DNA of 42,120 nucleotides from assembly GCA_944386145.1 (NCBI GenBank), contig CALWZZ010000001.1, forward strand, positions 1 to 42,120, in the 5' to 3' direction. The notes below the pieces were generated by a model. It saw only the letters and a list, made by a program, of their open reading frames with translations, ran no database searches and was not told the origin of the DNA. The DNA is from an uncultured Clostridia bacterium (GTDB taxonomy: Bacteria > Bacillota > Clostridia > TANB77 > CAG-508). Positions 1,116 to 29,228 of this stretch are shown piece by piece; position 1 is the stretch's first letter; each line of letters begins with the position of its first letter. The translations under genes and the position numbers were made by a program.

Positions 1116-1116
1116 T

Positions 1117-2079: not shown

Positions 2080-2096
2080 TATTTTCACATCTCCTA

Positions 2097-2522
2097 TTAT
2101 TTCTTTTTAAATACAAATAATTTACTAAATATATAATTTGCAATAACAATTAGTACATTTGAAACTAATTTCATAATCACATCATTTAAGTGTAAAACAT
2201 CTACAAATAGGTACATAAATCCCATATCTAGAAATAGGGATAAAATTCTAAATCCAAAGAAAGAAAACATTTCTTTGAAAAATTCTTTTTTGCTTAATCC
2301 TTTTGTTTGAAATACAAATAGTTTATTCGTTACATAGGCAAATAGAATAGATATAATTTGTGCAACAACTGTACTTACCATATAATCAACATTACATACT
2401 TTTGCTAATATAAGATATGATACATAATTAACAACCGTTGTTAATACACCAAATATTAGATAATTAATAATTTCTTTATATTTGTTCCATAGTGCTTTTA
2501 TTGTTTCCATTTTTGCTTTCAT
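2097..2522 (-). CDS. GtrA-family small membrane protein, a candidate lipid-linked sugar flippase
   Basis: The protein is 141 aa with 4 predicted TM segments and a typical GtrA-like N-terminus (YLIFGVLTTVVNY). It sits between the GtrB-like and GT-C-like genes. An AAGGAGGA RBS lies directly upstream. Confidence 0.75.
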   Translation of the reverse strand: MKAKMETIKALWNKYKEIINYLIFGVLTTVVNYVSYLILAKVCNVDYMVSTVVAQIISILFAYVTNKLFVFQTKGLSKKEFFKEMFSFFGFRILSLFLDMGFMYLFVDVLHLNDVIMKLVSNVLIVIANYIFSKLFVFKKK

Positions 2523-4134: not shown

Positions 4135-4150
4135 ATTAAGCCATCCCCTC

Positions 4151-5752: not shown

Positions 5753-5773
5753 ATTTTATCTCATTCCTTTCTT

Positions 5774-5811
5774 AAGGCACAAACCTGGTTGGAAAAGTAT
5801 TTTTCAACCTT
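5774..5811 (-). promoter_or_regulatory. Leader hairpin motif, copy 1 (AAGGTTGAAAA...TTTTCCAA...TTTGTGCCTT), just upstream of the RBS of 4151-5752
   Basis: The minus-strand reading is aaggttgaaaaatacttttccaaccaggtttgtgcctt. It shares an 11-mer and a 10-mer with 22507-22549. TTGAAAA and TTTTC(C)AA can pair. Confidence 0.45.
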
Positions 5812-5824
5812 GCTCCTCCTAAAT

Positions 5825-7789
5825 TCACTTCTCACTTTCTTTCTCCAATTGCCATGCTTTTATTAAAAAATCATAGCGCTTTTGAAATTCTTTTTTGTGC
5901 CATGCAGTAATACTTGTCAATTCTTCCATTCCTTTATGAATACGTTTAATTTCTTCTAAGTGTTTTTGCTTTTTCATCGTGCTTGTTATGTTATTTCCAT
6001 GAACACGATAATTGTTTAATGGTTTATTGACATAAGCAACATCTCCTAATGTCATTAAATGCGCATATAACACCCAATCTCCTGATTGTCGATATTGTAT
6101 GGCTTTATCAAAAAAGGTATCATAATTTCCTTTTCTAATTAATGCAGATGATACATTGGCAATTGTGCAATTTAAAAATGTATAATTATTTAATTCATCT
6201 GTTCCTTTATTGATAAAAGAATGTTTCCAATGGTTTGTTTTGCGGATATCAATTTCTGGTTCTATGGATTTTAAAAATATTTTTCCATCTTTATCTATAA
6301 AAGATGTATCTGCATAACTAATGACAATATCTTTATCTTTTTTTATATTTTTCACTAATGCTTTCATTAAATGTTTGTCACAATAATCATCTGCTTCTGC
6401 AATCCAAACATAATCTCCTTGGGTCAGGTTAAACCCTTTTTGCCATTGTTTAAAAGCAATTCCTGAATTTACTTTATTATATACTTTTCTAACGGGTATA
6501 TAATCTTTTATATTTTCTACAATGTCATCGATTAATTTTCGACTATTGTCTTTTGAACAGTCATCTAAAATAATCAACTCACTAATCTTTTCTGTTTGAT
6601 ATAATATGCTATATATTCGTTCTATTAAAAATTTTTCATAATTATAATTTGGAACAACTACAGATATATGCAGTTTGCTTTCTTTTTTTCTCTTTTGCTC
6701 TTTAGCTGCTTTTACCAAATCTTCCATTCCTAAATTTTCTTTTATGACACATTTTCCTTCTTTATCCATTATTTTTTTCTTAAACTTTACAATTTGTTTT
6801 CCAATTGTGATGATACAATTTATTAGTGTTGCTGATTTTAATCGTAATAGACCAATTACGAGTTTCCAGTAAATTCTTCCCCATCTTCCTCTTGTGTCTA
6901 AATACCTTTTGACACATGCTTGTTTTTCGATTTTGATATTTTGCTCTTTTTTTATAAAAAGTTTCAAATATTTTTGTCTATCCTTTATATTTTCTAGTGT
7001 TGTAATAACAAACACATATAACATTAAGATTTGATGGTATAAAATAATAGATTGATATGCTTGTACATCCTTTAAATCCTTAATTCTCTCAAATGTTAAT
7101 TCTACAGAATCAAAAATGTCAAATCGCTTTTCTGAAAATGTAGAATTTTGTATAGACGTATTTCTCTGTACATAATAATATGCCACTTCGTTTGTATATG
7201 CAAGCTTTTTGGCATGTAGCACAGCAGGAATCACAGAACAAATATCTTCGTTAATTTTTCCTTCTAAAAATAAATAATTTTCAATTAATGACTTTTTAAA
7301 TACTTTGTTACAAGCAGAAGCTGCTAATCCATTATCAATGGCTGCTTTTTTTATATCAGTTTCCTCTAGATTTATCCCTCTTTGTACAGTTCCTAATGGC
7401 TCTCCATTTTCATCCATTAATTGCATATCTGCAATTGCGATTTCTGCCTCGTTTTTCACTAGAACTTCCATTAATTTTTCATAATATTGTTTATCAATAT
7501 AATCATCAGAATCAATAAACCCTATATATTCACTATCTGCTAATTGAATTCCTCTGTTTCTGGTATATGCAAGACCTTTATTTTCTTCATTTTGATAAAC
7601 TGTCATTTTATCTGGATACTTGGTTTGTATATCTTTTATTTTTGAATATGTCTTATCTGTTGAACAATCATCTATTGCAATAATTTTTATTGGCTCATAT
7701 GTTTGTTCTAAAATACTGTTGATACTTTTTTCGACATATTTTTCAACATTATAGCAAGGTACAATAATTGTTAATTTTGGCTGTATCAT
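5825..7789 (-). CDS. Two-domain GT2 glycosyltransferase (GT2-A plus GT2-B fusion)
   Basis: The N-terminal domain reads LTIIVPCYNVEKYV...DDCSTD...DSDDYID. The second domain begins around aa 375 and reads HISVVVPNYNYEKF...LDDCSKD...AEADDYC. An AGGAG RBS lies upstream of the ATG at 7789. Confidence 0.85.
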   Translation of the reverse strand: MIQPKLTIIVPCYNVEKYVEKSINSILEQTYEPIKIIAIDDCSTDKTYSKIKDIQTKYPDKMTVYQNEENKGLAYTRNRGIQLADSEYIGFIDSDDYIDKQYYEKLMEVLVKNEAEIAIADMQLMDENGEPLGTVQRGINLEETDIKKAAIDNGLAASACNKVFKKSLIENYLFLEGKINEDICSVIPAVLHAKKLAYTNEVAYYYVQRNTSIQNSTFSEKRFDIFDSVELTFERIKDLKDVQAYQSIILYHQILMLYVFVITTLENIKDRQKYLKLFIKKEQNIKIEKQACVKRYLDTRGRWGRIYWKLVIGLLRLKSATLINCIITIGKQIVKFKKKIMDKEGKCVIKENLGMEDLVKAAKEQKRKKESKLHISVVVPNYNYEKFLIERIYSILYQTEKISELIILDDCSKDNSRKLIDDIVENIKDYIPVRKVYNKVNSGIAFKQWQKGFNLTQGDYVWIAEADDYCDKHLMKALVKNIKKDKDIVISYADTSFIDKDGKIFLKSIEPEIDIRKTNHWKHSFINKGTDELNNYTFLNCTIANVSSALIRKGNYDTFFDKAIQYRQSGDWVLYAHLMTLGDVAYVNKPLNNYRVHGNNITSTMKKQKHLEEIKRIHKGMEELTSITAWHKKEFQKRYDFLIKAWQLEKESEK

Positions 7790-7824
7790 TTTTTATCTCC
7801 TTTTTGTTCCCTTTTACTTTGAAC

Positions 7825-7853
7825 AGTATATCAAACTTGTATGTAAAAAGCAA
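7825..7853 (-). promoter_or_regulatory. Sigma-A-type promoter for 5825-7789
   Basis: The minus strand reads TTGCTT, a 17-nt spacer, then TATACT, in the divergent intergenic region. Confidence 0.5.
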
Positions 7854-7875
7854 TCGTATTATTTAAAAACTTTGA

Positions 7876-7904
7876 TTGACTACTTTTTTTTGCTATGTTA
7901 TAAT
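7876..7904 (+). promoter_or_regulatory. Sigma-A-type promoter with an extended -10 for the plus-strand GT2 pair
   Basis: The sequence is TTGACT, a 17-nt spacer containing a T8 run, then TGTTATAAT. The AAGGAG RBS and the ATG at 7935 follow about 30 nt downstream. Confidence 0.65.
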
Positions 7905-7934
7905 TTCTTTGATTTTAGAAAAAAGGAGCAAATT

Positions 7935-8879
7935 ATGTTGAATTTTAAGAACTTATTTAAAGAAAAAGTAAATATTTATAAAAATGTACCAAAAAAATTA
8001 GCTTTAGACAACCCTAAAAAAGTATCTGCGGTTATTCCAAACTACAATTATGCCAATTATATTATTGAGAGAATTGATTCTATTTTACAACAAACTTACC
8101 CAATTTATGAATTGGTTATTATTGATGATAAATCTACAGATAATAGTGTAGAGGTTATTGATAAAAAATTAAAAAAGGTGCAAAAAAAATATCCTGATTT
8201 GAAAGTGTCTTTTATTAAAAGAGATACCAATAGCGGAAATGTTTTCTGTGGTTGGCAAAATGCTTTTAAATATTCTACTGGGGACTTTTTATGGATTTGT
8301 GAGGCTGATGATAGTTGTTCTCCCCTATTTTTAGAAAATGTTATGAAAGGTTTTGACAATCCTAATACCATTTTATCTTATTGTGAATCATTAACTATGG
8401 ATGAGAATAATGTTATTTTAATGAAGGATTTACGTGAATGGATTGATATTTTCCAAACTGGCAAATGGAATGAAGATTATGATAATACAGGCGATATGGA
8501 ACTTGCAAGTACATTATGTATTAATAATACCATTGCTAATGTTTCTGGTGCTGTTTTTAGGAAATTACCTTCTGTAAATTTTGAAGAAATGTTAAAAACA
8601 GCTCAAACATTCCGATTGGCTGGTGACTGGTATTTCTATACAAAAGTATTAGAACATGGCGATATTCATTATTGCAAAACGTCTTTAAATTATCATCGTA
8701 TGCAAAGTAAATCTGTTACTTTAACAACTTCTGCCAAACAAGAATATGAGGAAATTTGTAGAATTCAAGATGATATTATGAAGAGAGTTACACTATCAGA
8801 AGAGGTAAAAGAACGTGTAATGAAAAGGAGAGCTGATAAGAGGAGGTGTTTTGAAATTGAAGAGCAAAACAACCAATAA
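7935..8879 (+). CDS. GT2 glycosyltransferase, paralog of the C-terminal domain of 5825-7789
   Basis: It has VSAVIPNYNYANYI...IDDKSTD...CEADDSC and TIANVSGAVFRK...AGDWYFY. These parallel LHISVVVPNYNYEKF...AEADDYC and TIANVSSALIRK...SGDWVLY in the fused protein. I chose the ATG at 7935 because an AAGGAG lies upstream, rather than the longer TTG ORF. Confidence 0.8.
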   Translation: MLNFKNLFKEKVNIYKNVPKKLALDNPKKVSAVIPNYNYANYIIERIDSILQQTYPIYELVIIDDKSTDNSVEVIDKKLKKVQKKYPDLKVSFIKRDTNSGNVFCGWQNAFKYSTGDFLWICEADDSCSPLFLENVMKGFDNPNTILSYCESLTMDENNVILMKDLREWIDIFQTGKWNEDYDNTGDMELASTLCINNTIANVSGAVFRKLPSVNFEEMLKTAQTFRLAGDWYFYTKVLEHGDIHYCKTSLNYHRMQSKSVTLTTSAKQEYEEICRIQDDIMKRVTLSEEVKERVMKRRADKRRCFEIEEQNNQ

Positions 8880-15315: not shown

Positions 15316-18042
15316 TTATCTGTAGCAATAATAATAATCCATATCCACTCTTCCTGAAATTCCATTTACAGAACCATCACTTGTATATTGCCACATAATA
15401 TAATCTTTTTCGTATGTACATTCATCTCCCCATTGTGCTACCCATTTTGGATATTGGTCTAAACTTTCATCATTAAGAATACCATTCCACCAAGTCAAAT
15501 TTGCATAAATACCGATATTATCATATCCATATCCATTCATTGTATCAACAAATGTATGGGCAATTTCTCTATACATTTCATCTGTAACATTGTAATCTGC
15601 TTTATAGCCATCTGATTCCATATCAAACCAAATTCCATATTCTGGTGTTGTATAATCTCCAGCTTGTACCAATAATCTTCTTACATGTTCTGCTTCTGAT
15701 ACAGCCTTATCTGTATCTACTGCATATGAATAAATATATACACCATAAGGAATACCTAATCGTTTACATTCCGTTACATTTCTTATAAACATGCTATCAT
15801 CTTGTGTCATATCATTTACACCATATCCGCAACGGATAATAACATAATCCACTTCATTTTTTACTTTTTCCCAATCAATATTTCCTTGATGTTCAGAAAT
15901 ATCAATTCCTCTTAAAATAGTTCTATCAATTGAAAAGTCTACAGTTGAAGAAGAAAGCACAGTTCCATCTTCTTTTTCAGCTACTACACGAATTGTATAA
16001 TTGCCTTCTGGATAACTTGTTAGTGGTATTTCCATACGAAATCCTGGTGTTGGATTTGTTTCAATTCCGCCATATCCTTCTACTGAATTAATAACATCTT
16101 GTCTTGCTCTTCTTGTAATTTCTTCGTCTAATTGTACATCATCTAAATAGATTTTTAATGTTACATCATCATATGTAGACATTATCCATCCTGATATTTC
16201 CATATTATCTCTTCCTGTAATATGTCCTTGTGATGGTGTATCTACATAAATCATTGTTGGATATTTTACCAATGTAAATTGTCTTGTTTCTTCTGCTAAA
16301 ACACTTCCATCTTGTGTTAAAATTCTAACAGATACTGTATGAATACCATCTTCAAGATTTGATACATCTGCTAAAACTTTAAATCCTGGCTCTGGATTTC
16401 TTTCTAATCCGCCATATCCTTCTATTGCACTAATAACATCTGGTCTTTCTCTTGTAACAACTTCTTGAGCAATACCATCTACTTTGATTTCTATAATTCT
16501 ATCTTTATAATTTGACATTACCCAACCATTAACTTCCACTTCTGTTGAACCAACATAATTGGTTGGTAAATCTACATTTAGATATGTAGGGTATTTGTAA
16601 ATATTTAAACTTCTATTCTCTTCTGCTAAAACTTCTCCGCTAGGTGCTAAAATTCTAATCGTTAATGTATGTGTTCCGTCTGCTATTTGGCTCAAATCTA
16701 AGCTTGCTTTAAATCCTGGTTCAGCATTTGTAGCACTTCCGCCATATCCTGGAATAGCACTTAATACATCTGGTCTTTGTCTTGTTGGAATATCTACATC
16801 TTGCTTAATTCCATCAATTAAAATTTGAATGGTTCTATCACTACAAGTTGATAATGCCCAACCATTAATTTCTAAGATATCTGTATCTATGTCACTTGTG
16901 TTTGGATAATCTACATTTAAATATGTTTGATATTTTTGTATTGTCAAATTTCTTACTTCTCTTGCGATAACCTCTCCACTCTCATTGGCGATTACTCTAA
17001 TCGTTAAAGTATGTTCTCCATCTGCAATATTGCTTAAATCTAAAGTTGCTTTAAATCCTGGCTCTGCATTTGTAGCAGCTCCACCATATCCTGGAACAGC
17101 ACTTAATACATCTGGTCTCTCTCTTGTTGGAATATCGACATCTTGTACTTCTCCATCTATGTAAACTCGAATGGTTCTATCTCTACAAGTTGACAATACC
17201 CATCCATTGATTTCTAAGGTATTTGTATCAATATAATTTGTATTTGGATAATCTAAATTAAGATATGTTTCATATTTTTGTATTTGTAAAGTTCTTGTTT
17301 CTTGTGCTAAGATTTCTCCATTATCTGACAAAATTCTAATGGTTAAGGTATGTACGCCATCTGGTACATTTGTTAAATCTAGTGTTGCTTTAAATCCTGG
17401 TTTCGCATTTGTTTCAATTCCACCATATCCTGAAATTGCACTTAATACATCTGGTCTTTCTCTTGTTGGAATGTCTACATTTTCTACACCACCATCTAAT
17501 AAAATTTGAATAGTTCTATCACTACATGTTGACAATACCCATCCATTGATTTCTAAGGTATTTGTATCAATATAGTTTGTATTTGGATAATCTATATTTA
17601 AGTATGTTTGATATTTTTGTATATTCAAATTTCTGTTTTCTTCTGCTAAGATTTCTCCTGTGTTTGCTAAAATTCTAATGGTTAAGGTATGCTCTCCATC
17701 TGACACATTACTTAAATCTAATGTTGCTTTAAATCCTGGTTCGGCATTTGTATCGGCTCCACCATATCCTGAAACAGCACTTAATACATCTGGCCTCTCT
17801 CTTGTTGGAATATCAACATCTTGTACGGTTCCATCTAATAAAATTTGAATAGTTCTATCGCTACATGTTGATAAAACCCATCCATTAATTTCTAAAGTAT
17901 CTGTATCAATCGCATTTGTATTCGGATAATCTATATTTAAGTAGGTTTCATAATCTTCTGTTGCGGCTTGTACTGTGTTAATCGCTAAAAATGATACTAA
18001 AATGATTAAAAATATACATCCTATAGACAATAATTTTTTCAT
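15316..18042 (-). CDS. Secreted GH25 muramidase with six N-terminal repeats of about 113 aa
   Basis: There is a signal peptide (MKKLLSIGCIFLIILVSFLAINTVQA). Six repeats have the form TYLN(I/V)DYP...INGW(V/A)LS...RERPDVLSA..GYGG..TNAEPGFKA.LDLS...DG.HTLTIRI. The C-terminal GH25 domain carries GIDISEHQGNIDW, GIPYGVYIYSYA and WQYTSDGSVNGISGRVDMD. I prefer the ATG at 18042 (AAGGAGA 8 nt upstream) over the TTG at 18048. Confidence 0.85.
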   Translation of the reverse strand: MKKLLSIGCIFLIILVSFLAINTVQAATEDYETYLNIDYPNTNAIDTDTLEINGWVLSTCSDRTIQILLDGTVQDVDIPTRERPDVLSAVSGYGGADTNAEPGFKATLDLSNVSDGEHTLTIRILANTGEILAEENRNLNIQKYQTYLNIDYPNTNYIDTNTLEINGWVLSTCSDRTIQILLDGGVENVDIPTRERPDVLSAISGYGGIETNAKPGFKATLDLTNVPDGVHTLTIRILSDNGEILAQETRTLQIQKYETYLNLDYPNTNYIDTNTLEINGWVLSTCRDRTIRVYIDGEVQDVDIPTRERPDVLSAVPGYGGAATNAEPGFKATLDLSNIADGEHTLTIRVIANESGEVIAREVRNLTIQKYQTYLNVDYPNTSDIDTDILEINGWALSTCSDRTIQILIDGIKQDVDIPTRQRPDVLSAIPGYGGSATNAEPGFKASLDLSQIADGTHTLTIRILAPSGEVLAEENRSLNIYKYPTYLNVDLPTNYVGSTEVEVNGWVMSNYKDRIIEIKVDGIAQEVVTRERPDVISAIEGYGGLERNPEPGFKVLADVSNLEDGIHTVSVRILTQDGSVLAEETRQFTLVKYPTMIYVDTPSQGHITGRDNMEISGWIMSTYDDVTLKIYLDDVQLDEEITRRARQDVINSVEGYGGIETNPTPGFRMEIPLTSYPEGNYTIRVVAEKEDGTVLSSSTVDFSIDRTILRGIDISEHQGNIDWEKVKNEVDYVIIRCGYGVNDMTQDDSMFIRNVTECKRLGIPYGVYIYSYAVDTDKAVSEAEHVRRLLVQAGDYTTPEYGIWFDMESDGYKADYNVTDEMYREIAHTFVDTMNGYGYDNIGIYANLTWWNGILNDESLDQYPKWVAQWGDECTYEKDYIMWQYTSDGSVNGISGRVDMDYYYCYR
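15922..17949 (-). repeat. Six tandem in-frame coding repeats with a period of about 339 nt
   Basis: The repeat units cover aa 34-146, 147-259, 260-373, 374-486, 487-596 and 597-709 in ORF-track numbering. The first four are also very similar at the nucleotide level, for example in the recurring ...gcacttaatacatctgg... segment. Confidence 0.85.
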
Positions 18043-18134
18043 ATCCAATTCTCCTTTTTTATTTTTTTAATTCTTTATCTTTTTCTATTCATATTTAATT
18101 CTTATGGCTAGTAAATTTTTAGATTTTCTCCAAA

Positions 18135-19388
18135 TCAATCTTTATTTTTTCTAAAAAATCTAGTATATCGCCAGCTTCTAGAGTTTTTAATAGCTTGAAT
18201 AGCTTCATCTTTTTGTTTCATTTCTTCCTTTAAAGCCTCTATTGTTCTATCTTTCTCGCCTAATAAATAGCCTCGATTGTCAATTTCCCTTTGTTTTTCA
18301 TTTAGTTCTTGTTCTTTTATTTGATAAAATTCAATTGTTTGTTGTTTTAAAGTTTCTTCTTTTCTTCTTTCAAAATGTTCTGCTAATCGTTTAGAAACTA
18401 GTAGGTTTCTTGCATATTGGCTATATTCCTGTTTTATCTTTTCTATATCCACCTCCTCACAATTTTCTAAACGTGTTAATACTTCATCAATTTTTGTTTC
18501 AAAACAAAAATTGTTATAGGCATAATCTTTAATCTGTTCTAGTTGTGTTAATGTAGCTTCAAAATTTTCGATGATTTCTTTTACAATGGTATCTGCGTCC
18601 TTTTTAGAAAAGCCTCTACCTGAAAAATTGTGTGCTCGATTGGTTTCCATCGTTTCCATACGCAAATAGCCATCTCCTCCATGAATATCATAGATATATA
18701 CAGGGATTTTTAGTGACATGGCATATTGCACAGTTTTTCCGATAGTGATAATACAATCATACTCTTTTAGAATTTCATCTGTGATAAGTACCTGTTTTCC
18801 CACTAATCCATAAATGTCCACCTGATAACCTTTTTCTGATAATTTTTGAATGGCTTCCATTTCTTCTTCTGGTATGTGGTTTGAAACAACAGCAATCTTT
18901 TCAAGCTTTTCTACTTGTATATTTTGTTCAAAATAGCTTTTGAAAGAATAATTTTCTAATAAATATACATTTTTTATATGTTCTTCTTTTGTTAGCTTTT
19001 CATAAGTTTCTTGCGAATTTGCCAAAGAAAAACATAATGCATTTGCATAGATAGGTGCTGCTTCAAATGGTTCTTTTGGAGACAAAGAACTGGTTATGAT
19101 TTTTTTGGCACGTAGTCCTTTTTCAAAAATCAGCCAATCTAATAAATAAGAATGATGTGCCCACACAATATCAAATTCTATTTGTGAAAAATCAAAATCA
19201 TTTTCTAATAAATGAATGGTACCATCAAAATCATCTTTTACAATATCATAAATTGGAGGGCCAAATTCTAAAGCTGCTATATACACCTCATATCCGAGTT
19301 CTTTTAATCTTTTAGCAATTGTCACACAATTGATTTCCGAACCAGCAAATTGAACAATTGCAAAATTCGTTATTAATACCTTTTTCAT
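18135..19388 (-). CDS. GT-B-like (two Rossmann-like halves) protein with a C-terminal coiled coil; a candidate chain terminator or length regulator
   Basis: The N-terminus, MKKVLITNFAIVQFAGSEINCVTIAKRLKELGYEVYIA, looks like a glycosyltransferase. The last 90 aa or so are heptad-rich and charged (…LKQQTIEFYQIKEQELNEKQREIDNRGYLLGEKDRTIEALKEEMKQKDEAIQAIKNSRSWRYTRFFRK). The gene lies directly downstream of the exporter ATPase gene. Confidence 0.45.
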   Translation of the reverse strand: MKKVLITNFAIVQFAGSEINCVTIAKRLKELGYEVYIAALEFGPPIYDIVKDDFDGTIHLLENDFDFSQIEFDIVWAHHSYLLDWLIFEKGLRAKKIITSSLSPKEPFEAAPIYANALCFSLANSQETYEKLTKEEHIKNVYLLENYSFKSYFEQNIQVEKLEKIAVVSNHIPEEEMEAIQKLSEKGYQVDIYGLVGKQVLITDEILKEYDCIITIGKTVQYAMSLKIPVYIYDIHGGDGYLRMETMETNRAHNFSGRGFSKKDADTIVKEIIENFEATLTQLEQIKDYAYNNFCFETKIDEVLTRLENCEEVDIEKIKQEYSQYARNLLVSKRLAEHFERRKEETLKQQTIEFYQIKEQELNEKQREIDNRGYLLGEKDRTIEALKEEMKQKDEAIQAIKNSRSWRYTRFFRKNKD

Positions 19389-19394
19389 AAAAAC

Positions 19395-20612
19395 TTACCC
19401 CTCTTTTATTATCTCATAATCACAGCTACACAATCCTTCTGAATGTAAAGCACCAAAATGGTTTCTAGGTACTTTAACCTTAAAACTTGTTGCATAATCT
19501 ACCTTATCATAGCTAAACATTATCTTTTCATCACATACAGATACTGTCACATAATAGGTATCTTCCGCAAAATTATTTCTATTGATTTTATAGGTCACTT
19601 TTTTCTCATCTTTGCCAATGAATTGGTCAATTCTTACAGAATTAATCGCTGTTGTGATTTCTCCTTTTGAATTGGAAATTAATAATCCTACACCATAATT
19701 GTCAATTTGTTTTAAATTTTCTAGTTCAATTGTGATATATATATCGTCAAATACATCATAGACCTCTTTGTCTGCTGTTACTTTTTCTACACGGATAGAT
19801 TTATTTTTATCATTTTTCTTCTTTTTCTTTTCTTTCTCAATTACTTCGATTTTTTCTTGGATTTGTTTTTCTCTTGGATTATCAATCATATACTTTTTAT
19901 ATTCATCTGTTACAAAACCAGTATCTCCATCTAGTACAATTTGTCCATCTCTCATCCAAATAGCTCTCGTACAGAAGTTTTTTATGGCATGTAAAGAATG
20001 GGATACAAAAAGAATTGTTGTTCCTTTTTTTCTAATTTCCTTCATTTTTGTAATAGATTTTTCTTGGAATGCCATATCTCCAACAGATAAAACCTCGTCA
20101 ACAATTAAAACCTCTGGTTCTACGTTAATTGCACAAGCAAAAGCAAGTCTAGCAAACATACCAGATGAGTATGTTTTTACAGGTTGACTTAAATGCTCTC
20201 CAATATCTGCAAAATCAATAATTTCTTGTTCCTTTGCTTTAATTTCCTCATTGGTCATTCCCATAACTTGTCCATGTTGATAAATATTTTCATATCCTGT
20301 TAATTCTGAATTAAAAGCTGCTCCCAATTCTAGTAAAGAACTGATTTTTCCTTTTACATGGATTTCTCCACTAGTTGGTACAACTACCCCTGTTACCATT
20401 TTTAATAATGTGGATTTTCCTGCACCATTTTTTCCTAGAATACCAAGAATTTCTCCTTTTTTAACATTCAAATTCAAACCATTTACTGCTCTAAAGGCTT
20501 GATGACGATTTACCTTTGGAAATAAAATTTCAATTAAACGGTCTTGCTTTCTAGCATACATTTTATATTCTTTTACTAAATCCTTTATTTCAATTGCATT
20601 TTCTTCATTCAT
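19395..20612 (-). CDS. Polysaccharide/teichoic-acid ABC exporter ATPase (Wzt/TagH/RgpD-like) with an extra C-terminal domain
   Basis: It has Walker A GKNGAGKST, the signature YSSGMFARL and Walker B LIVDEVLSVGD. After a lysine-rich linker, about 135 further residues (roughly 19398-19799) are beta-rich, as in Wzt C-terminal glycan-binding domains. Confidence 0.85.
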   Translation of the reverse strand: MNEENAIEIKDLVKEYKMYARKQDRLIEILFPKVNRHQAFRAVNGLNLNVKKGEILGILGKNGAGKSTLLKMVTGVVVPTSGEIHVKGKISSLLELGAAFNSELTGYENIYQHGQVMGMTNEEIKAKEQEIIDFADIGEHLSQPVKTYSSGMFARLAFACAINVEPEVLIVDEVLSVGDMAFQEKSITKMKEIRKKGTTILFVSHSLHAIKNFCTRAIWMRDGQIVLDGDTGFVTDEYKKYMIDNPREKQIQEKIEVIEKEKKKKKNDKNKSIRVEKVTADKEVYDVFDDIYITIELENLKQIDNYGVGLLISNSKGEITTAINSVRIDQFIGKDEKKVTYKINRNNFAEDTYYVTVSVCDEKIMFSYDKVDYATSFKVKVPRNHFGALHSEGLCSCDYEIIKEG

Positions 20613-20639
20613 CTATTCTAACTCCCTTAAATCAAAATA

Positions 20640-21428
20640 TTATAATACATCTGCAAAATCTTTTTTGGCTCTTTTGAATATACTGTTTCCCCATACAAAT
20701 AAAACAACTACAATTATCCAAAATATAAGTGTATAAAATCCATATACCTCAAAGACAATATTTCCATCTATAAATACTTGACGCATTGCTGTAATTAGAT
20801 ATGTAAATGGCATACATTTTTCTACACTTAATAAAATACCATCGCCTAACATAGATAAATTCCAGATAATTGGTGTAAACCAGAAAATTAATTGCATAAC
20901 GATGGATAACAATTGTGAAAAATCTGGTACTAATGCACAAATAGCAGAAGTAAATCTTGTAAAGGCAAGTATAAATGCATATGCCGCAATTAATACATAG
21001 ATTAGCATTAAAATATTTGGAAAATATCCAAAACAACAACATACAATAATAGAAATAATCACTAAAAATAATCCTACTACTGCACATGATACAATAGATA
21101 TTGTTGGAATAATATCTACTGGAAAGACTAATTTTTTTACCAGATAACTATATGCTCTAATAGAATTGCTTGCATTCATAATCGTATCATTTAAAGTTAA
21201 CCATAATGCCATTGCTGGTATATACCAAACCACATAAGGGTCATTTCCTGCTGCTCCTGTTTTTAAAATATACTGGAATACAATAACATAAGTAAGCATA
21301 AAGATAAATGGTTGTATAAATCCCCATATTGCTCCTAAACTTGTATTGGCAAAACGATTTCTAAAATCGTTTTTTCCTAATTGCATAATTAATTTTCTAT
21401 TCTTGATTAGTGTCTTAAAAAAGTCCAT
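20640..21428 (-). CDS. ABC-2 type polysaccharide exporter permease (Wzm/TagG/RgpC-like)
   Basis: The protein has six TM segments and the typical N-terminus LGKNDFRNRFANTSLGAIWGFIQPF. I chose the ATG at 21428 (MDFFKTL) because a GGAGAG RBS lies 5 nt upstream. Confidence 0.85.
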   Translation of the reverse strand: MDFFKTLIKNRKLIMQLGKNDFRNRFANTSLGAIWGFIQPFIFMLTYVIVFQYILKTGAAGNDPYVVWYIPAMALWLTLNDTIMNASNSIRAYSYLVKKLVFPVDIIPTISIVSCAVVGLFLVIISIIVCCCFGYFPNILMLIYVLIAAYAFILAFTRFTSAICALVPDFSQLLSIVMQLIFWFTPIIWNLSMLGDGILLSVEKCMPFTYLITAMRQVFIDGNIVFEVYGFYTLIFWIIVVVLFVWGNSIFKRAKKDFADVL

Positions 21429-21465
21429 ATTTCTCTCCTTGTTTCTCTCTGTTTTTTCAAACCAT

Positions 21466-21494
21466 ATTGTATCTTTAATTCTATTATTTGTCAA
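21466..21494 (-). promoter_or_regulatory. Strong sigma-A-type promoter for the exporter operon
   Basis: The minus strand reads TTGACA, a 17-nt spacer, then TACAAT. Confidence 0.6.
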
Positions 21495-21540
21495 TTATAA
21501 AATTTGTTAATTTATTTTTCTGCGTCAAAAAATTTATTTA

Positions 21541-21736
21541 ATTAGTCAGAAGTTATATTATTATATTTTATGAAATTAAATGTGCTAATGGAGAAATATT
21601 ACAAATTCTTACATTATCAAGTGGGAGAATCTCAACCCCGCTTTGAGAGGGGCCTGCTTTATAATGTTAGAATTTGTATATTTCGCAATGCCAGCCATTT
21701 AATAAATAAAATATAATAATATAACTTCTGACTAAT
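21541..21736. repeat. Complete copy of the long palindromic intergenic element (homolog of 1-140)
   Basis: The outer stem is 31 bp and perfect (21541-21571 with 21706-21736). The inner arms are imperfect. The GC-rich apex is gggagaatctcaaccccgctttgagaggggcc. The element starts 11 nt after the stop of 21748-22491 (at 21748) and lies upstream of the exporter promoter. Confidence 0.7.
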
Positions 21737-21747
21737 CTTCATCATTT

Positions 21748-22491
21748 TTATGAAAAAATAGAATTTATAATTTCTTCATTTGACAATTCATTTCTTGCAT
21801 TTGTCGTAACAACAAATACTTTTTTATTATCCTTTTCGTAATGTTCGCAAGTTTGATAAGGGTCCATTTGTTCAAAAGGATATTCTACAATTTCTCCAGA
21901 AACTTCATCTGCCACATAACAGGTTCCAGTCATTGAAATTATATATAAATCCTCGCCATTCAACACATTTTGAATTTTCTCATCAATTTCATTACCATTT
22001 GTGGTATTTTCACACACCAAATATCCATCTGAATTAATAGAATATGTATTTTGTGTTGTATTATGCAACAACTCTAAAAATGCTTCTTGAGAATTACCAG
22101 CAACCCAGATACCTGTTTTATCTTGAAAATCTTCATCATATTGCCTTAAATTTTCTGGTCTTCCTTCTGGCATTTGATTTTCAATAATTCCTGCTAATAC
22201 TACATTGAATTGTACTTCTGGTTTTATGGTTAAAATTTTTCTACCATCATATTCTGATGTAACATCATAGATAGAATCATCTCCTGTTGCTCCAACATCT
22301 GCTTTTAACGCATCTACTGTTACATTTTCTTGATAAGCTACTTGATTTTTGTCAATTTCCACACCTTCTTGTGGTGTATATTCTATTACTTGCGAGTCTT
22401 CTGTTTCATTTTTTCTACTAAAGAAATATATTGCAATAGCAATTAAAATAATGATAACAATTATAATGACATATTTTATATATTTTTTCAT
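21748..22491 (-). CDS. Membrane-anchored extracytoplasmic protein of unknown function
   Basis: The protein is 247 aa from the ATG at 22491 (GGAGGAA RBS 8 nt upstream). It has a single N-terminal TM helix (YVIIIVIIILIAIAIYFF) followed by an acidic soluble domain. I recognised no family. Confidence 0.5.
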   Translation of the reverse strand: MKKYIKYVIIIVIIILIAIAIYFFSRKNETEDSQVIEYTPQEGVEIDKNQVAYQENVTVDALKADVGATGDDSIYDVTSEYDGRKILTIKPEVQFNVVLAGIIENQMPEGRPENLRQYDEDFQDKTGIWVAGNSQEAFLELLHNTTQNTYSINSDGYLVCENTTNGNEIDEKIQNVLNGEDLYIISMTGTCYVADEVSGEIVEYPFEQMDPYQTCEHYEKDNKKVFVVTTNARNELSNEEIINSIFS

Positions 22492-22506
22492 TTTTATCAT
22501 TCCTCC

Positions 22507-22549
22507 AAGGCACAAATAGATTGAAAAAATCATCATTGTTTTCAACCTT
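22507..22549 (-). promoter_or_regulatory. Leader hairpin motif, copy 2, upstream of the RBS of 21748-22491
   Basis: The minus-strand reading is aaggttgaaaacaatgatgattttttcaatctatttgtgcctt. It has the same flanking AAGGTTGAAAA and TTTGTGCCTT as 5774-5811, followed by GGAATGA and an A-rich stretch before the ATG. Confidence 0.45.
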
Positions 22550-22562
22550 TGTATACTTACTA

Positions 22563-22600
22563 CAAAAGGGACAGCAACTTCATACATGTCCCCTTTTTTT
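22563..22600 (-). terminator. Intrinsic terminator after the M14 hydrolase gene
   Basis: The minus strand reads aaaaaaaGGGGACAtgtatgaagttgcTGTCCCttttg, a GC stem followed by a T run. Confidence 0.6.
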
Positions 22601-22610
22601 ACAACATCAA

Positions 22611-25187
22611 TTAACTATTTCTTAACATACTAATGGTTGCTCTAATATATTTTCCTGCATAGTCTCTACTTACAACTTGATTATGATTGCTTACAGGAGG
22701 TAATTCGATTAATGCACTTCTTGTATTTGACAAAGTAGAACGTGCCCAGTTAATTAGATATCCACCACCATAGCTTGAAATATGTGTTGACATACCATAT
22801 TCACTTCTATAATAACTTCCTAATCCATTATCTCCTATACTTTCATTTAGCCAACCATGTAAGTCAATTAAAATGGTTCTTCCTGATGATGATTTTTTAC
22901 TTAATAAGAAATCTCTTAAATATCTTGCCTCATATGCTTGGAAGGCTTGAGTACCATTATATTCTCTTGTGCTTGTTCTTCTTGTATACCCTACTGACCA
23001 ACAACGGTTCATATCAATTCCTTGATGTCCTGGTGCTGCACTATATAATGTTGTTCTTCCTGCACCATTATTATCCCAACCATAGTATTGTCCATCTGTG
23101 TTAGCACATGGGAATATATATATTGTCCAATTATTTAAAACATCTTGATAATTCATTTGGTTTTGTAATAAATGATTTTTAAATTGGTCTGCTATATAAG
23201 AAAGTTCTTGTCCATCTTTATGCCAACCATCTTCAAATCCATGCACTGAAAATACAGCAAATAATACATTTGGTCCATCACCTATTCTGTAATATTTTAA
23301 ATCGTCTCCTTCTGCTGCTCTTTGTACTTTTAACCCACTAATTCCATAAGTGCCTTCTTCATAAGTAAATTCATTGATAGATACTGGGTAGCTAAGTGTA
23401 TCAATAATTTCTCCCAAAGTTGTTGAATAAACTTCTATTTTTAATGTATAGTTTCCTGATGCATATCCTGAAACATTGATTGTTCCATCAAATCCTGCCA
23501 ATGGATTTTGTTCTGCTGTTCCATATCCTGTAATACTTCCTGTTACATCTGGTCGATTATATAAATTAATTTGACTGGTAATATTTTGATTATTCAAATA
23601 AAAACGTATTTCTTTATTTGGTTGCTCAGACATATACCAACCATGGATACTTAAAGAATTTCTATAATTTTGTCCTTGTACAGGATAATCTACATATATT
23701 TGTGTATTATATTTTTTTATATAAAATGTTTGTTGTACTTCTTCAATCACTTCATTAAAGTCTGTATTGATAACCTGGATAATAACTTTATGTTCTCCAT
23801 CTTTAAAATTACTTACATCAACTGTTCCATCAAATCCTGCTAGTGGGTTTTGCTCTGCTGTTCCATATCCTGTAATGCTTCCTGTTACATCTGGTCTAGC
23901 ATATCTTTCAATACTACTTGTTACTTCATTTTGAGCACTATCAATATATACTTTGATTTCTTTATTTTTCGCTTCTGACATTAGCCAGCCATGGATATTA
24001 ACAGAAGTTTTTACTGTTTGATTTGTTGATGGATAATCTACATATACTTGTGTATTATATTTCTTCACATAAATGGTTCGACTATCTTGTGCAATGACTT
24101 CATCTGTGTCAGTATTAATCACTTGTATAATGACAGTATGGTTACCATCTCTGTAATTACTTAAATCAATTTTTCCTCTATATCCTGCTAATGGATTTTG
24201 TTCTGGTGTTCCATACCCTGTGATACTTCCTGTTACATCTGGTCTCGCATATCTTTCGATATTGCTTGTTACATCATTTTTTTCACTATCAATATATACT
24301 TTTACTTCTTTATTTGTTGCTTCTGACATTAGCCAGCCATGTACATAAACCGTATCCTTTTCTTGTTCATCTGCTACTGGATAGTCAATATACAATTGGG
24401 TATTGTATTTTTGAAGATAAATGGTTCTACTATCTTCTGCAATTACTTCATCTGTATCTGTATTGATAACCTGTATATAAATTTTGTGTTGTCCATCACT
24501 ATATGTACTTAAATCAATTGTTCCTCTATAGCCTGCAAGTGGGTTTTGTTCTGCTGTTCCATATCCTGTAATACTTCCTGTTACATCTGGTCTGTTATAT
24601 CTTTCAATACTTGCTGTTACATCATTTTGCTCATTATCAATATATACTTTAAGTTCTTTATTTTCTGCTTCTGACATTAGCCAGCCATGCACATATACTT
24701 CATTTTTTTCTTGTGCATTTTGGATTGGATAATCTATATATAGTTGTGTATTATATTTTTGAACTGTAAATTTTTGTTCAGCTTCTCCAATTATTTCACC
24801 TGTTTCATTATGAATTGCTTGTATAATTAATGTATGTGTGCCATCTTTATATTGGCGAATATCTACGGTTCCTTTAAAACCTGCCAATGGATTTTGCTCT
24901 GCTGTTCCATATCCTGTAACACTTCCTGTTACATCTGGTCTATCATATCTTTCAATTGCCTCTGTAATATCGTTTTCTTCACTATCAATAAATATTTTCA
25001 AAGATTTATCTTCAATAGCAGACATAAACCATCCGTGTACAGTAAGTGTATCTTTACATACCTCATTTTGTACTGGATAATCTATATAAATTTGTGCTTC
25101 ATTTTGGGCTTTTGAAGATATTGGAAATATTAGCATAACTAATGATAATATAAAAATAATACTAATTAAATATGTACTTTTTTTCAT
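22611..25187 (-). CDS. Secreted M14-family zinc peptidase (gamma-D-glutamyl-diamino-acid peptidase-like) with five N-terminal 116-aa repeats
   Basis: There is a signal peptide. Five repeats have the form (I/L/V)Y(I/V)DYP...HGW(F/L/Y)MS...RPDVTGS(I/V)TGYGTAEQNPLAG(F/Y).G..D...Y.DG.H. The C-terminal domain carries the M14 motifs HGFE, NTDG, DMNRCW and IDLHGW. Confidence 0.8.
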   Translation of the reverse strand: MKKSTYLISIIFILSLVMLIFPISSKAQNEAQIYIDYPVQNEVCKDTLTVHGWFMSAIEDKSLKIFIDSEENDITEAIERYDRPDVTGSVTGYGTAEQNPLAGFKGTVDIRQYKDGTHTLIIQAIHNETGEIIGEAEQKFTVQKYNTQLYIDYPIQNAQEKNEVYVHGWLMSEAENKELKVYIDNEQNDVTASIERYNRPDVTGSITGYGTAEQNPLAGYRGTIDLSTYSDGQHKIYIQVINTDTDEVIAEDSRTIYLQKYNTQLYIDYPVADEQEKDTVYVHGWLMSEATNKEVKVYIDSEKNDVTSNIERYARPDVTGSITGYGTPEQNPLAGYRGKIDLSNYRDGNHTVIIQVINTDTDEVIAQDSRTIYVKKYNTQVYVDYPSTNQTVKTSVNIHGWLMSEAKNKEIKVYIDSAQNEVTSSIERYARPDVTGSITGYGTAEQNPLAGFDGTVDVSNFKDGEHKVIIQVINTDFNEVIEEVQQTFYIKKYNTQIYVDYPVQGQNYRNSLSIHGWYMSEQPNKEIRFYLNNQNITSQINLYNRPDVTGSITGYGTAEQNPLAGFDGTINVSGYASGNYTLKIEVYSTTLGEIIDTLSYPVSINEFTYEEGTYGISGLKVQRAAEGDDLKYYRIGDGPNVLFAVFSVHGFEDGWHKDGQELSYIADQFKNHLLQNQMNYQDVLNNWTIYIFPCANTDGQYYGWDNNGAGRTTLYSAAPGHQGIDMNRCWSVGYTRRTSTREYNGTQAFQAYEARYLRDFLLSKKSSSGRTILIDLHGWLNESIGDNGLGSYYRSEYGMSTHISSYGGGYLINWARSTLSNTRSALIELPPVSNHNQVVSRDYAGKYIRATISMLRNS
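23370..25091 (-). repeat. Five tandem in-frame coding repeats with a period of about 348 nt
   Basis: The units cover aa 33-148, 149-264, 265-380, 381-496 and 497 to about 606. They belong to the same family as the repeats at 15922-17949 but have diverged from them. Confidence 0.85.
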
Positions 25188-25222
25188 TTTCCCTCTTTCC
25201 TTTCCAAAATTAAACTATCTTT

Positions 25223-25250
25223 ATTGTATATGAAATTATTAATATTCCAA
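25223..25250 (-). promoter_or_regulatory. Possible sigma-A-type promoter for the M14 hydrolase gene
   Basis: The minus strand reads TTGGAA, a 16-nt spacer, then TACAAT, about 35 nt upstream of the start. Confidence 0.4.
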
Positions 25251-25299
25251 TTCTGTTTGATTTTTTTCGTATACAACACTTTTCTATGTTTTTTATTTA

Positions 25300-27150
25300 C
25301 TAATCCCTCCCTTCTCTTATGCGATAATCTTCTATATCTGTTCTGAAATTTATGTTGAAAAAGGGGTCTCCTTTTTCTAGAAAATGCTTCCAATCATTTC
25401 TAAATCTCTCAGTTTCATTTTGATATCTTTCTATTTGTTCTTTACTTGTTTCATAACCTCTTGATTTTGACTCAAAATGATTTAATTCTATATAAGGTGT
25501 CCATACAATTTGATATCCTTTTTCACGTACTTTTAAGCAAAAATCTACGTCATTTAATGCCACTTGATAGTTTTCGTTCATATAGCCTACTTCTTCATAA
25601 ATAGCTTTTTTTGAAAATAGGCAAGCTCCTGTTACTGCACTAAAATTTTGAATGATACTTTCTCTAAAAAAGTATGCTTTTTTGTCTTTTGATAAATTTC
25701 TTAAGATATGTCCTGCTGTTCCATTAATCCCTACAACGATTCCAGCATGTTGAATGGTTTTATCTGGATAATATAGTTTTGCGCCTACAATTCCAACATC
25801 TTGTTTTTGTGCAAATCCTATAAATTGTTCTAACCAGTCTGGGGTTAGCAATTCTGTATCATTATTTAGTTGTAAAATATATGGAGAATCTACCTGTTTT
25901 ACACCATAATTGATAATTTTAGAATAATTAAATTCTTTTTCCGGATAATACACTACTTTTATTTTATCATTTTTTTCAATGTTTTTGTAGTAGTCAAATG
26001 TTTCCTTTTTTTGGCTATTGTTTTCTATCACAACAATTTCATAATTTGAATATGTTGTTAAACGTAAAATAGATTCAATACATAATTTTAAGTCCTTAAC
26101 ATGGTCCATATTAGGAATTAGTATAGAGACCTTGTCCTCTTTATTTATAGCATATGTAATCTTATATGTTCCTAAATATTTTCCATGTTCTACATTTCCT
26201 TGTAAGTGCATTCTTTTTAAATGGTCTTCTAAAGCTTTTTTTCCAGCTTCATATGCATATGGTTTTGCTTCTCCTGTCACTGCAGCAGCTGTAGACCCTT
26301 CGTGCACACGCCAATGATATAAAATTTTAGGAATATGCACAATATGATTTGTATGTTCTGCTATTCGTAAGAACAAATCATAATCTTGTGCTCCATCATA
26401 ACCTTCATGAAATCCACCAATTTCTTGCATTAATGAAGCTTTTATCACTGTAAAATGACAGATGTAATTCAACGACCTTAATGTATCTATCGCAAAGTCC
26501 GGTTTAAAATGTGGACTATATCTATCTTCTAATGAATTTGAAAATTTATCTTCGTCAGAATACATACATTCTGTGTCTGGTTGTTCATTTATGCATTTTA
26601 CTACCTCATACAAAGCAAATTCTGCTAACAAATCATCATGGTCTAATAGTCCAATATAGTCTCCTGTTGCAAGTTTAATTGCTTCATTGGTATTTTCTGC
26701 AATACCTAAATTTTTTCCAAGATATTGATATCGTATTCTTTCATCTGATTTTGCTAATTCTTCTATTTCTTGATTTTTTGTTTCACTTCCATCTGCTAAG
26801 CAAAGTTCCCAATTAGAATAGGTTTGAGCCTTCATATTTTCAACAATTTCGCTTAAATATGCTAATTTTGTATGATATAATGGGATAACAATACTTATTT
26901 TGGGTTGTATTGCAAATGTCGTTTCCTTTTGTTTTTGTAACTCTTCTTTTGTTGGTTCATTTGCTTCTATCCATTTTTTATAGGCAATGGTATTATTTTC
27001 TTGTCCTTTTCTATCATATTGCTTGATTTTAGTCATAGTTTCTTTTATTCCACTATTTTTTAAAGACAGAAATGTTTGTTTTATTAATACAAGATAATGT
27101 CTAATTTTACTATCTTTTGGGAATAATCTATCTTTTAATTGAATATACAA
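25300..27150 (-). CDS. Two-domain GT2 glycosyltransferase (RgpF/WbbX-like architecture)
   Basis: The first GT2 domain reads ISIVIPLYHTKLAYL...DHDD. The second reads VSILIPNMDHVKDL...NNDTE...NDVDFCLK. The start is a TTG at 27150, 10 nt after AAGGAG. Confidence 0.8.
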   Translation of the reverse strand: MYIQLKDRLFPKDSKIRHYLVLIKQTFLSLKNSGIKETMTKIKQYDRKGQENNTIAYKKWIEANEPTKEELQKQKETTFAIQPKISIVIPLYHTKLAYLSEIVENMKAQTYSNWELCLADGSETKNQEIEELAKSDERIRYQYLGKNLGIAENTNEAIKLATGDYIGLLDHDDLLAEFALYEVVKCINEQPDTECMYSDEDKFSNSLEDRYSPHFKPDFAIDTLRSLNYICHFTVIKASLMQEIGGFHEGYDGAQDYDLFLRIAEHTNHIVHIPKILYHWRVHEGSTAAAVTGEAKPYAYEAGKKALEDHLKRMHLQGNVEHGKYLGTYKITYAINKEDKVSILIPNMDHVKDLKLCIESILRLTTYSNYEIVVIENNSQKKETFDYYKNIEKNDKIKVVYYPEKEFNYSKIINYGVKQVDSPYILQLNNDTELLTPDWLEQFIGFAQKQDVGIVGAKLYYPDKTIQHAGIVVGINGTAGHILRNLSKDKKAYFFRESIIQNFSAVTGACLFSKKAIYEEVGYMNENYQVALNDVDFCLKVREKGYQIVWTPYIELNHFESKSRGYETSKEQIERYQNETERFRNDWKHFLEKGDPFFNINFRTDIEDYRIREGRD

Positions 27151-27153
27151 TAT

Positions 27154-28140
27154 TTACGCACTCCTTATTCGTATTTTTCTAATTGCAAACAAGCAATTAC
27201 CAACCAATGGTAAATTGAGAATTATAAAGTTTAATATATAATAGCTAATCGTTTCATTTTTATATAATCTATGAAATGTTCCCCAATTTTGAAAATTGAA
27301 AAACTGCTTTTTTTCTATTTTATCAAAATATGTTTTTCCTTGTTGATTCAATTTTTGCAGATCCTCAGGAAATTTTTCTTGATTTTCCAGATATGTTTTA
27401 AATAAATCTTTTTTTACTTGGATAAACAATTCTCGAATTTGTTTAAATTCTTTATATTTATAAGATGTCCTCTCTGTTCCTACTTGATTATCTCCATGTT
27501 GCCTATATTGAATCGTTGGTTTATCTAAATACGCAATTTTACCATGGAAAGATATCATTAAACCAATCCAAGAATCATGAATTATATATTTTGAATGTTT
27601 AGGAATTGGTAATATTTGTGGTATCCATTTTTTCTTAGATAAAATTGTACATCCTGTCATATTGTTATATAAATACTCAAATTCTTTTGTTCCCAATGTT
27701 TTTTTAATTTTATGCATTTTTCCCATCGTTGCATTAAAAGAAGGATGTATACGCTTTAAATTTTCATCAACGATTTCTAAATCTGTAAATACTAAATCTG
27801 CATTTTCTTCTTCTAATTTTTTTACAGTATCTTCTATTTTACTTGGTTTCCAGACATCATCCTGGTCTGATAACATATATAGTTCATTTTCTACTTTTTG
27901 TAATAAAAATTCAAAATTGCTGACATATCCTAAGTTTTTTTCCTGATAATAAATGGTAATTTTGTCATTGTCTTCATATTTTTTTAAAATCTCTCTTGTG
28001 GTATCATTTGAACCATCATCTGAAATAATTAAATGGATATTTTTATAACTTTGATTTAAAATACTTTCTATTTGTTCTTCTAGATATTTTTCGCCATTAT
28101 AGGTTGCCATCAAAATATCTATTTTTTGTGTATCTTTCAC
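27154..28140 (-). CDS. GT2 glycosyltransferase, RgpB-like (rhamnosyltransferase-type family)
   Basis: It has IDILMATYNGEKYLEEQIESILNQSY...ISDDGSND...SDQDDVW. The ATG at 28158 has no RBS, whereas a GTG at 28140 follows GGAGGA by 10 nt. The start is therefore uncertain between 28140 and 28158. Confidence 0.75.
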   Translation of the reverse strand: MKDTQKIDILMATYNGEKYLEEQIESILNQSYKNIHLIISDDGSNDTTREILKKYEDNDKITIYYQEKNLGYVSNFEFLLQKVENELYMLSDQDDVWKPSKIEDTVKKLEEENADLVFTDLEIVDENLKRIHPSFNATMGKMHKIKKTLGTKEFEYLYNNMTGCTILSKKKWIPQILPIPKHSKYIIHDSWIGLMISFHGKIAYLDKPTIQYRQHGDNQVGTERTSYKYKEFKQIRELFIQVKKDLFKTYLENQEKFPEDLQKLNQQGKTYFDKIEKKQFFNFQNWGTFHRLYKNETISYYILNFIILNLPLVGNCLFAIRKIRIRSA

Positions 28141-28185
28141 TGTTTTAAAGTCCTCCATTTTGTTTAATTGTTGTATACAAGTTTC

Positions 28186-29169: not shown

Positions 29170-29228
29170 TTTCTCTCCATAATTTGTTTTTAGTAAAATC
29201 AAAAAAATTACAATTATAATCTAACTAT

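Follow-up and report, generated by a model that had tools for sequence, protein, structure and literature searches.

How a secreted peptidoglycan hydrolase is held on the wall of the cell that makes it is the question raised by a gene in a stretch of 42,120 nucleotides (nt) from an uncultured Clostridia bacterium (GCA_944386145.1, contig CALWZZ010000001.1, positions 1 to 42,120; this whole stretch is hereafter called the window). The gene encodes six tandem repeats followed by a GH25 muramidase, and it lies within a locus for a wall glycopolymer. In streptococci, enterococci, staphylococci, Bacillus and C. difficile it is well understood how secondary wall polymers control autolysins; in the many low-GC gut Clostridia that are available only as metagenome-assembled genomes, such control is, to our knowledge, almost uncharted. 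From the secretion signal, the repeat anatomy, the fold class, the hydrolase partners, the absence of another anchor and the conserved locus linkage, all of which the analysis gives directly, we infer that the repeats are a multivalent wall-targeting domain which would bind the secondary glycopolymer of the surrounding locus, with a probability of roughly 0.55. That they are a wall-targeting module, whatever the ligand may be, appears likely.

Six head-to-tail repeats fused to a GH25 muramidase

The open reading frame (ORF) of the GH25 protein extends over 15316..18048 on the minus strand and encodes 910 amino acids (aa) from a TTG start. An alternative ATG at 18042 gives 908 aa, which is the length of near-identical metagenomic homologues beginning with MKKLL, and this ATG is likely the true start. 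The protein carries a Sec signal peptide (aa 1-28, 17965..18048), for which the sequence suggests cleavage between AINTVQA and ATED, then six head-to-tail repeats of 110-114 aa each at aa 33-709, and finally a GH25 N-acetylmuramidase catalytic domain (PF01183; aa 710-910 and the stop codon, 15316..15921). The first repeat, r1 (113 aa, 17614..17952), is closely resembled by r2 (113 aa, 17275..17613), r3 (114 aa, 16933..17274) and r4 (113 aa, 16594..16932), with identities of 82%, 81% and 79%, respectively, and less so by r5 (110 aa, 16264..16593, 54%) and r6 (114 aa, 15922..16263, 35%); all these features are on the minus strand. At the DNA level, Tandem Repeats Finder reported a tandem repeat with a period of 339, 4.0 copies, 81% matches and a score of 1609, and a profile hidden Markov model (HMM) detected six copies in the protein (best domain E = 8e-52). 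The array is thus far beyond chance. Since the PF01183 match covered the full profile (positions 1-180 of 180, aa 715-897, 79.8 bits against a cut-off of 27, E = 4e-22), the original prediction of a six-copy repeat fused to a GH25 muramidase was confirmed; the motif pattern that it gave for the repeat matches r1-r4 of the six copies.

Relatives of the GH25 domain in the PDB included LytC, cellosyl and phage GH25 lysins, the best solved one being Streptococcus pneumoniae LytC (2ww5, E = 3e-23). Acidic motifs (GIDIS, FDMES and VDMD) can be read from the sequence of the predicted domain. No other anchor was found on the protein, as LPXTG, SLH, CWB2, LysM, SH3b and choline-binding matches were all absent (Pfam, E ≤ 1), so that the repeats are the only candidate for retention on the wall. 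The window repeats are strongly acidic: their isoelectric points (pI) lie at 4.1-4.8, and each repeat carries a net charge of -5 to -12. Because this charge is not kept across the repeat family, whose median pI is 5.6, generic electrostatic binding to an anionic polymer is unlikely.

An immunoglobulin-like module without a curated family

The repeat had been described as unassigned and as belonging to none of the CWB2, SLH, choline-binding, LysM, SH3b and ChW families. The latter statement held, since the 24 Pfam matches of the whole GH25 protein at E ≤ 1 included no Bsp, CW_binding_1, CWB2, SLH, LysM, SH3b/SH3_3, ChW, GW or DUF5776, nor did any of these known wall-binding families match 11 single repeats. 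The Pfam matches of the repeats at E ≤ 1 were weak ones to immunoglobulin (Ig)-like and E-set families (DUF4165, TcfC E-set, Big_13, Big_7 and GbpA_D3). DUF4165 (PF13752, E-set clan) reached 50.5 bits on the whole protein, where the scores of six copies add up, the cut-off being 25 bits. Single repeats, of which 3 out of 11 matched, stayed below this cut-off at about 16 bits (E 0.01 to 4e-4). NCBIfam gave no match to the repeat, and the precomputed matches of a newer Pfam release were 'faint' Ig-like families only, for instance Ig_Mok13, DUF7668 and GbpA_D3. Sequence-profile searches of the PDB with 11 and with 60 repeats returned nothing significant (best E = 0.0055, to DUF4955, and 0.022, respectively).

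AlphaFold (AF2) modelled the repeat with a predicted local distance difference test score (pLDDT) of 85.6 from 11 sequences, and with a pLDDT of 97.6 and a predicted template modelling score of 0.88 from 60 diverse repeats. The model is a beta-sandwich of six long strands with an insert of about 35 residues (positions 40-74) that bears a short helix. Foldseek searches with two models against the PDB and BFVD yielded only generic Ig/E-set matches at template modelling (TM) scores of about 0.55-0.65, among them the E-set domain of sulfite oxidase, GbpA, ICAM-1, CD22 and Fn3-like CbhA modules (E 1.6e-4 to 1e-3, TMq 0.55-0.62) as well as the Siglec-like SrpA; no confident known domain emerged from this check, which the original prediction had proposed. 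As modelled, the repeat is an Ig-like/E-set beta-sandwich module. Because curated libraries, PDB profiles and Foldseek gave generic matches at most, the repeat family is neither curated nor structurally characterised: it is a large family without a curated Pfam or NCBIfam entry and without a close structure in the PDB. The description as unassigned therefore stands in the sense that the repeat has no dedicated family and no close structure, and fails in the sense that it is not a fold orphan, given its Ig-like/E-set fold.

Over 244 divergent repeats, the family shows a signature of D8, P10, G24-W25, R53-x-D55-V56, Y63-G64, N69-P-x-P72-G73-F74 and G86-x-H88. Conservation was 0.98 for W25, 0.97 for R53 and D55, 0.89 for Y63 and 0.75 for both N69 and H88; together with G24, the residues W25, R53 and D55 are at least 97% conserved, and most of the conserved polar and aromatic positions lie in or beside the insert 40-74. 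With DUF4165, Big_7, TcfC E-set and GbpA_D3 the window repeat shares an Ig-like beta-sandwich fold and weak profile similarity, whereas the GW/RxDV/YG/NPxPGF signature and the insert with its helix belong to the repeat family alone and set it apart from DUF4165 and the other E-set families.

Family distribution and fusion partners

By an exhaustive HMMER profile search of 1.84 billion cluster representatives (clusters at 50% identity), repeat-bearing representatives were counted as 1819 at E ≤ 1e-3, 728 at ≤ 1e-10 and 308 at ≤ 1e-30. This count overturned an impression of rarity from a word-index search with one profile, which had given 8 fragments. A scan of species genomes with a very narrow peptide pattern found 2 metagenome-assembled genomes (an uncultured Eubacteriales and an uncultured Clostridia bin from rabbit), and a pattern so narrow is unfit for judging distribution. 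No protein name was attached to any of 10 clusters checked. A phage origin or use as an endolysin was considered and dropped, since tblastn gave no match in 50,697 phage records and a pattern scan of IMG/VR gave no relative.

For the top 150 representatives, the repeats, present in 2-10 tandem copies per protein, were removed and the remainder of each protein was classified. The carriers sorted in this way were mostly hydrolases, with a classical peptidoglycan hydrolase domain in 112 out of 150. GH25 was the most frequent partner (61 of the top 150), followed by GH73 glucosaminidase (32), Amidase_3 (25), M14 (10), Peptidase_C39_2-like (5), S8 subtilase (5), GDSL (2), ChW alongside a hydrolase (2), RCC1 (1) and papain with a lectin (1), and 16 were repeats only or fragments. 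Sixteen of the Amidase_3 proteins are bifunctional, with GH73 followed by 5-9 repeats and then Amidase_3 (for instance, P0062, P0097, P0129, P0137 and P0143). This layout, with repeats between two catalytic domains, resembles that of staphylococcal Atl, the difference being that an Ig-like repeat is used in these bifunctional proteins.

Linkage of the repeat to glycopolymer loci

A second secreted hydrolase is encoded in the window at 22611..25187 (-). It consists of a signal peptide, five related repeats (23370..25103, -) and a Peptidase_M14 domain (22614..23369, -). Its repeats are 114-116 aa long and 31-41% identical to r1 of the GH25 protein, and 14 invariant positions are common to the repeats of both proteins. 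As predicted, a six-frame HMM scan of the whole 42 kb confined the repeat to these two hydrolases, whose genes bracket the exporter: between them lie Wzm, an ABC-2 permease (20640..21494, -), Wzt, an ATPase with Wzt_C (19395..20612, -), and two proteins without a family match.

We then compared the neighbourhoods of homologues that are 33-50% identical to the window protein and those of close relatives (designated by L numbers). The GH25-repeat gene was located inside a wall-glycopolymer locus, defined by glycosyltransferases with an ABC-2 exporter and/or rmlABCD, in 8/8 GH25 lineages examined, that is, the window lineage (the window, L001 and L010), L002, L003, L005, L008, L007, L012 and L013; GtrA or GT-C enzymes were often present as well. 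L002 is syntenic and has both Wzm/Wzt and a repeat-M14 gene. In L003, L005 and L008, which are from human-gut metagenomes, the GH25-repeat gene has GT2/GtrA/GT-C genes on one side and rmlD-A-C-B on the other. In L012 it is surrounded by rml genes, an ABC-2 exporter and glycosyltransferases; in L013 its locus contains an ABC-2 exporter, Glyphos_transf and LicD, and a repeat-C39_2 gene is its neighbour. In L007 (3708..13285), three consecutive repeat-bearing hydrolases are found between glf and rmlDACB, namely a GH25 protein (930 aa), an M14 protein (874 aa) and a third protein, of 1094 aa, which ends in a domain that clusters with GH73-type glucosaminidases, so that a whole autolysin set is embedded in a galactofuranose/rhamnose polymer locus.

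The repeats of the window and L002 group by enzyme, being 45-48% identical within GH25 or within M14 proteins versus 34-38% across types. Between different enzymes of the same genome, the repeats of L007 and L013 are 39-44% alike, compared with 31-35% to the same enzyme type elsewhere. The copy number on the M14 enzyme varies among close relatives, with 5 in the window, 6 in L001 (2708..5632) and 4 in L002 (2632..4860), and varying copy number is typical of low-affinity multivalent wall-binding repeats. In L010 (3089..5633), the M14 gene is split within the repeats into two overlapping ORFs with 2 and 4 repeats, the called gene encoding 622 aa; either a frameshift or misassembly of the repeated DNA may account for this.

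Directly abutting the GH25 gene is a block at 10030..15210 (-) that encodes a Wzx-like flippase, a GT4 enzyme, a 120-aa ORF, a 232-aa GT2 enzyme and a 570-aa membrane protein. It is present in the window and L001 and absent in the 79%-identical relative L010 (compared interval 12727..12875), where the GH25 gene directly adjoins the two opposite-strand GT2 genes, and it looks like a strain-variable decoration module. The repeats of L010 are no more diverged from those of the window than is the catalytic domain (78-81% versus 79% identity). The earlier proposal that localisation of the hydrolases depends on a side chain of the polymer is so far unsupported.

Comparison with locus-encoded autolysins

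Three known systems invite comparison. Streptococcus mutans AtlA consists of six N-terminal Bsp repeats (PF08481) and a C-terminal GH25 domain; by attaching to the polyrhamnose backbone, its repeats put the autolysin in place, and genes for Bsp autolysins often adjoin rhamnose-polysaccharide loci (bioRxiv 10.1101/2020.06.26.173716). The window protein has the same order and number of modules, with a signal peptide, six repeats and a C-terminal GH25 domain. It differs in that its repeat has no PF08481 match at E ≤ 1 and is instead an Ig-like sandwich of about 113 aa, that its host belongs to the Clostridia and that its gene is situated inside the locus, between the exporter and glycosyltransferases. 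The enterococcal enzymes AtlE/EpaU likewise are GH25 muramidases encoded inside a wall-polysaccharide locus. They are encoded in the variable region of the Enterococcus faecalis epa locus, and their DUF5776 or GW repeats, which vary between strains, bind teichoic-acid-like decorations of EPA, the epa-encoded polysaccharide; the action of the enzyme leads to wall remodelling and polymer release (PMC12208459, PMC13343894). In these proteins GH25 is N-terminal, whereas it is C-terminal in the window protein, and the repeats are SH3-related (GW) or DUF5776, whereas the window repeat is Ig-like and matches neither. Their ligand is a variable teichoic-acid-like decoration, whereas the one proposed for the window repeats is a conserved part of the polymer. 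Pneumococcal LytC, the closest solved GH25 enzyme mentioned above, also has N-terminal repeats that bind a wall polymer and a C-terminal GH25 domain, but its choline-binding repeats are beta-hairpins of about 20 aa with affinity for the phosphocholine of teichoic acid, in contrast to the acidic 113-aa Ig-like modules of the window protein.

As a secreted hydrolase with a repeat domain encoded in a glycopolymer locus, the window GH25 protein fits the architecture of locus-encoded autolysins (AtlA/Bsp and AtlE/EpaU). By analogy, the best reading is that it works like AtlA, AtlE/EpaU and LytC, presumably by polymer binding, without belonging to their repeat families. The putative tethering of the hydrolases to the polymer of the locus, which the original prediction had put forward, gains comparative support from the hydrolase fusions and the 8/8 loci; the concept is not new, as AtlA and AtlE/EpaU exemplify it. 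No concept is overturned here, because the principle has already been established by experiment with other repeat families. What is new is an uncurated Ig-like repeat that replaces Bsp, GW, DUF5776 or choline-binding repeats in Clostridia. The repeat merits a curated domain family, which for low-GC gut Clostridia would be the wall-targeting module that has so far been missing.

Proposed function and weighing of alternative explanations

In the proposed mechanism, the GH25 protein would be exported by Sec, and its six repeats would bind, multivalently and by avidity, a secondary wall glycopolymer assembled by the surrounding ABC-transporter-dependent locus. The most likely ligand would be a conserved part of the polymer, such as the backbone: because the motif is near-invariant across very divergent lineages, its sequence argues for a conserved ligand feature over a variable decoration. 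Binding would hold the C-terminal GH25 muramidase on the producer's own wall, the M14 peptidase with its own repeat subtype would be held likewise, and cleavage of peptidoglycan for remodelling, separation, turnover or release of polymer fragments would thereby be directed to places where the polymer is present or accessible. More broadly, and more tentatively, with somewhat less than an even chance of being right, the repeats (at least 1819 clusters) may constitute a new lectin-like family that abounds in gut Clostridia and uses an Ig fold to read wall polysaccharides; its W/R/D/Y/N/H site would recognise a shared feature, possibly of the rhamnan type, of polymers made by ABC-transporter pathways. 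If this is true, autolysin suites (GH25, GH73, amidase and M14) of mostly uncultured bacteria would be positioned by polymer, and isolated repeats could be used as specific probes for it; GFP-repeat fusions would be a concrete and cloneable reagent for detecting and mapping wall polysaccharides.

Several observations weigh against polymer binding. The linkage to glycopolymer loci might exist because peptidoglycan has to be opened for biosynthesis, with no binding of the polymer involved, and the conserved residues may be structural, stabilising the insert instead of contacting a ligand. The similarity of repeats within one genome may also come from recent duplication or gene conversion, and faster divergence of the repeats than of the catalytic domain was a signal not seen in close relatives. 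The window lacks rml genes that would point to the chemistry of its polymer, and a C39_2-type repeat protein of L011 is encoded away from any glycopolymer locus. This L011 member would also fit a module that targets the wall through peptidoglycan, in the manner of LysM or SH3b, with the position in the locus arising from co-regulation where the wall is opened during polymer attachment. The fusion of the repeats to four classes of peptidoglycan hydrolase would be explained in the same way, as would the near-constancy of the motif among lineages whose polymers must differ and the finding that, in a relative with different locus content, the repeats have diverged no further than the catalytic domain. 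We nevertheless regard peptidoglycan as an unlikely ligand, since the gene of a generic peptidoglycan binder would not usually be found in glycopolymer loci in 8/8 lineages, as the GH25-repeat gene is. In the window and L002, the GH25 and M14 enzymes each retain a repeat subtype of their own, and the repeat has no sequence or close structural likeness to known peptidoglycan-binding folds.

Two further explanations concern what, if anything, the repeats recognise. Tandem Ig-like arrays are often stalks in bacterial surface proteins, and the window repeats could be inert spacers without a ligand that give reach through a thick wall or surface layer, protease resistance or oligomerisation; the generic Ig-like/E-set fold, with best Foldseek matches that are non-specific (TM about 0.6), agrees with this. 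A stalk, however, requires an anchor, and the repeat proteins have none. Near-invariant W, R, D, Y, N and H residues in a loop insert, kept across 30%-identical copies, are unusual for spacer Ig domains, and the near-exclusive association with wall hydrolases and glycopolymer loci would be left unexplained, so that a purely inert role seems very improbable. The other explanation is a special case of polymer binding, in which the repeats read a variable, possibly phase-variable, side-chain decoration in the manner of EpaU. It is encouraged by EpaU itself, whose wall-binding domain needs teichoic-acid-like decorations and is strain-selective (PMC13343894), and by the variable block at 10030..15210, present in L001 and absent in L010, which the GH25 gene abuts. 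The repeats of L010, which lacks the block, are nevertheless as conserved as its GH25 domain, and the motif is invariant across lineages, both of which weigh mildly against it; moreover, decorations hinder rather than mediate binding of S. mutans AtlA (bioRxiv 10.1101/2020.06.26.173716). Side-chain recognition accordingly appears quite unlikely, and no evidence of phase variation emerged, none having been sought. The reading that we prefer is multivalent binding to a conserved portion of the polymer that the surrounding locus would assemble.

Other features of the locus and the window

One of the two proteins without a family match between the hydrolase genes is a 417-aa protein (18135..19388, -) with a long C-terminal coiled coil and no match in Pfam or NCBIfam. 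It is kept directly downstream of Wzt, between Wzt and the GH25 gene, in L001, L009 and L010, and L002 has a 410-aa ORF there that is likened to it by position, not by sequence. From this position and the coiled coil, one may speculate that it controls chain length or acts as a terminator in the ABC-transporter pathway.

The glycopolymer locus as a whole extends over 174..29202 and contains about ten GT2 genes overall. Its downstream part, at 174..15210 on both strands, has many GT2 genes, a GT4 gene, the Wzx-like flippase and GT-C enzymes of the PMT_2 and DUF6056 types. The 570-aa polytopic membrane protein encoded there has no family match, and a 141-aa ORF occupies the position that GtrA has in L010, its function being read from synteny only. 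The upstream part, at 25300..29202 (-), comprises a two-domain GT2 gene (616 aa) and two more GT2 genes, and the locus ends ahead of an IMPDH gene at 29395. A promoter and terminator scan gave promoter-like sites at chance level and no minus-strand terminator-like site between genes. Two GT2 genes at 7872..10020 (+) are on the strand opposite to the rest of the locus. Their relative orientation is the same in L001 and L010, which gives no sign of an invertible segment, flanking inverted repeats not having been searched for.

Outside the glycopolymer locus, at 31037..34740 (-), a pair of acetate kinase paralogues of 409 and 395 aa stands in tandem beside a phosphotransacetylase/phosphotransbutyrylase gene, and these genes probably represent acetate and butyrate kinase functions.

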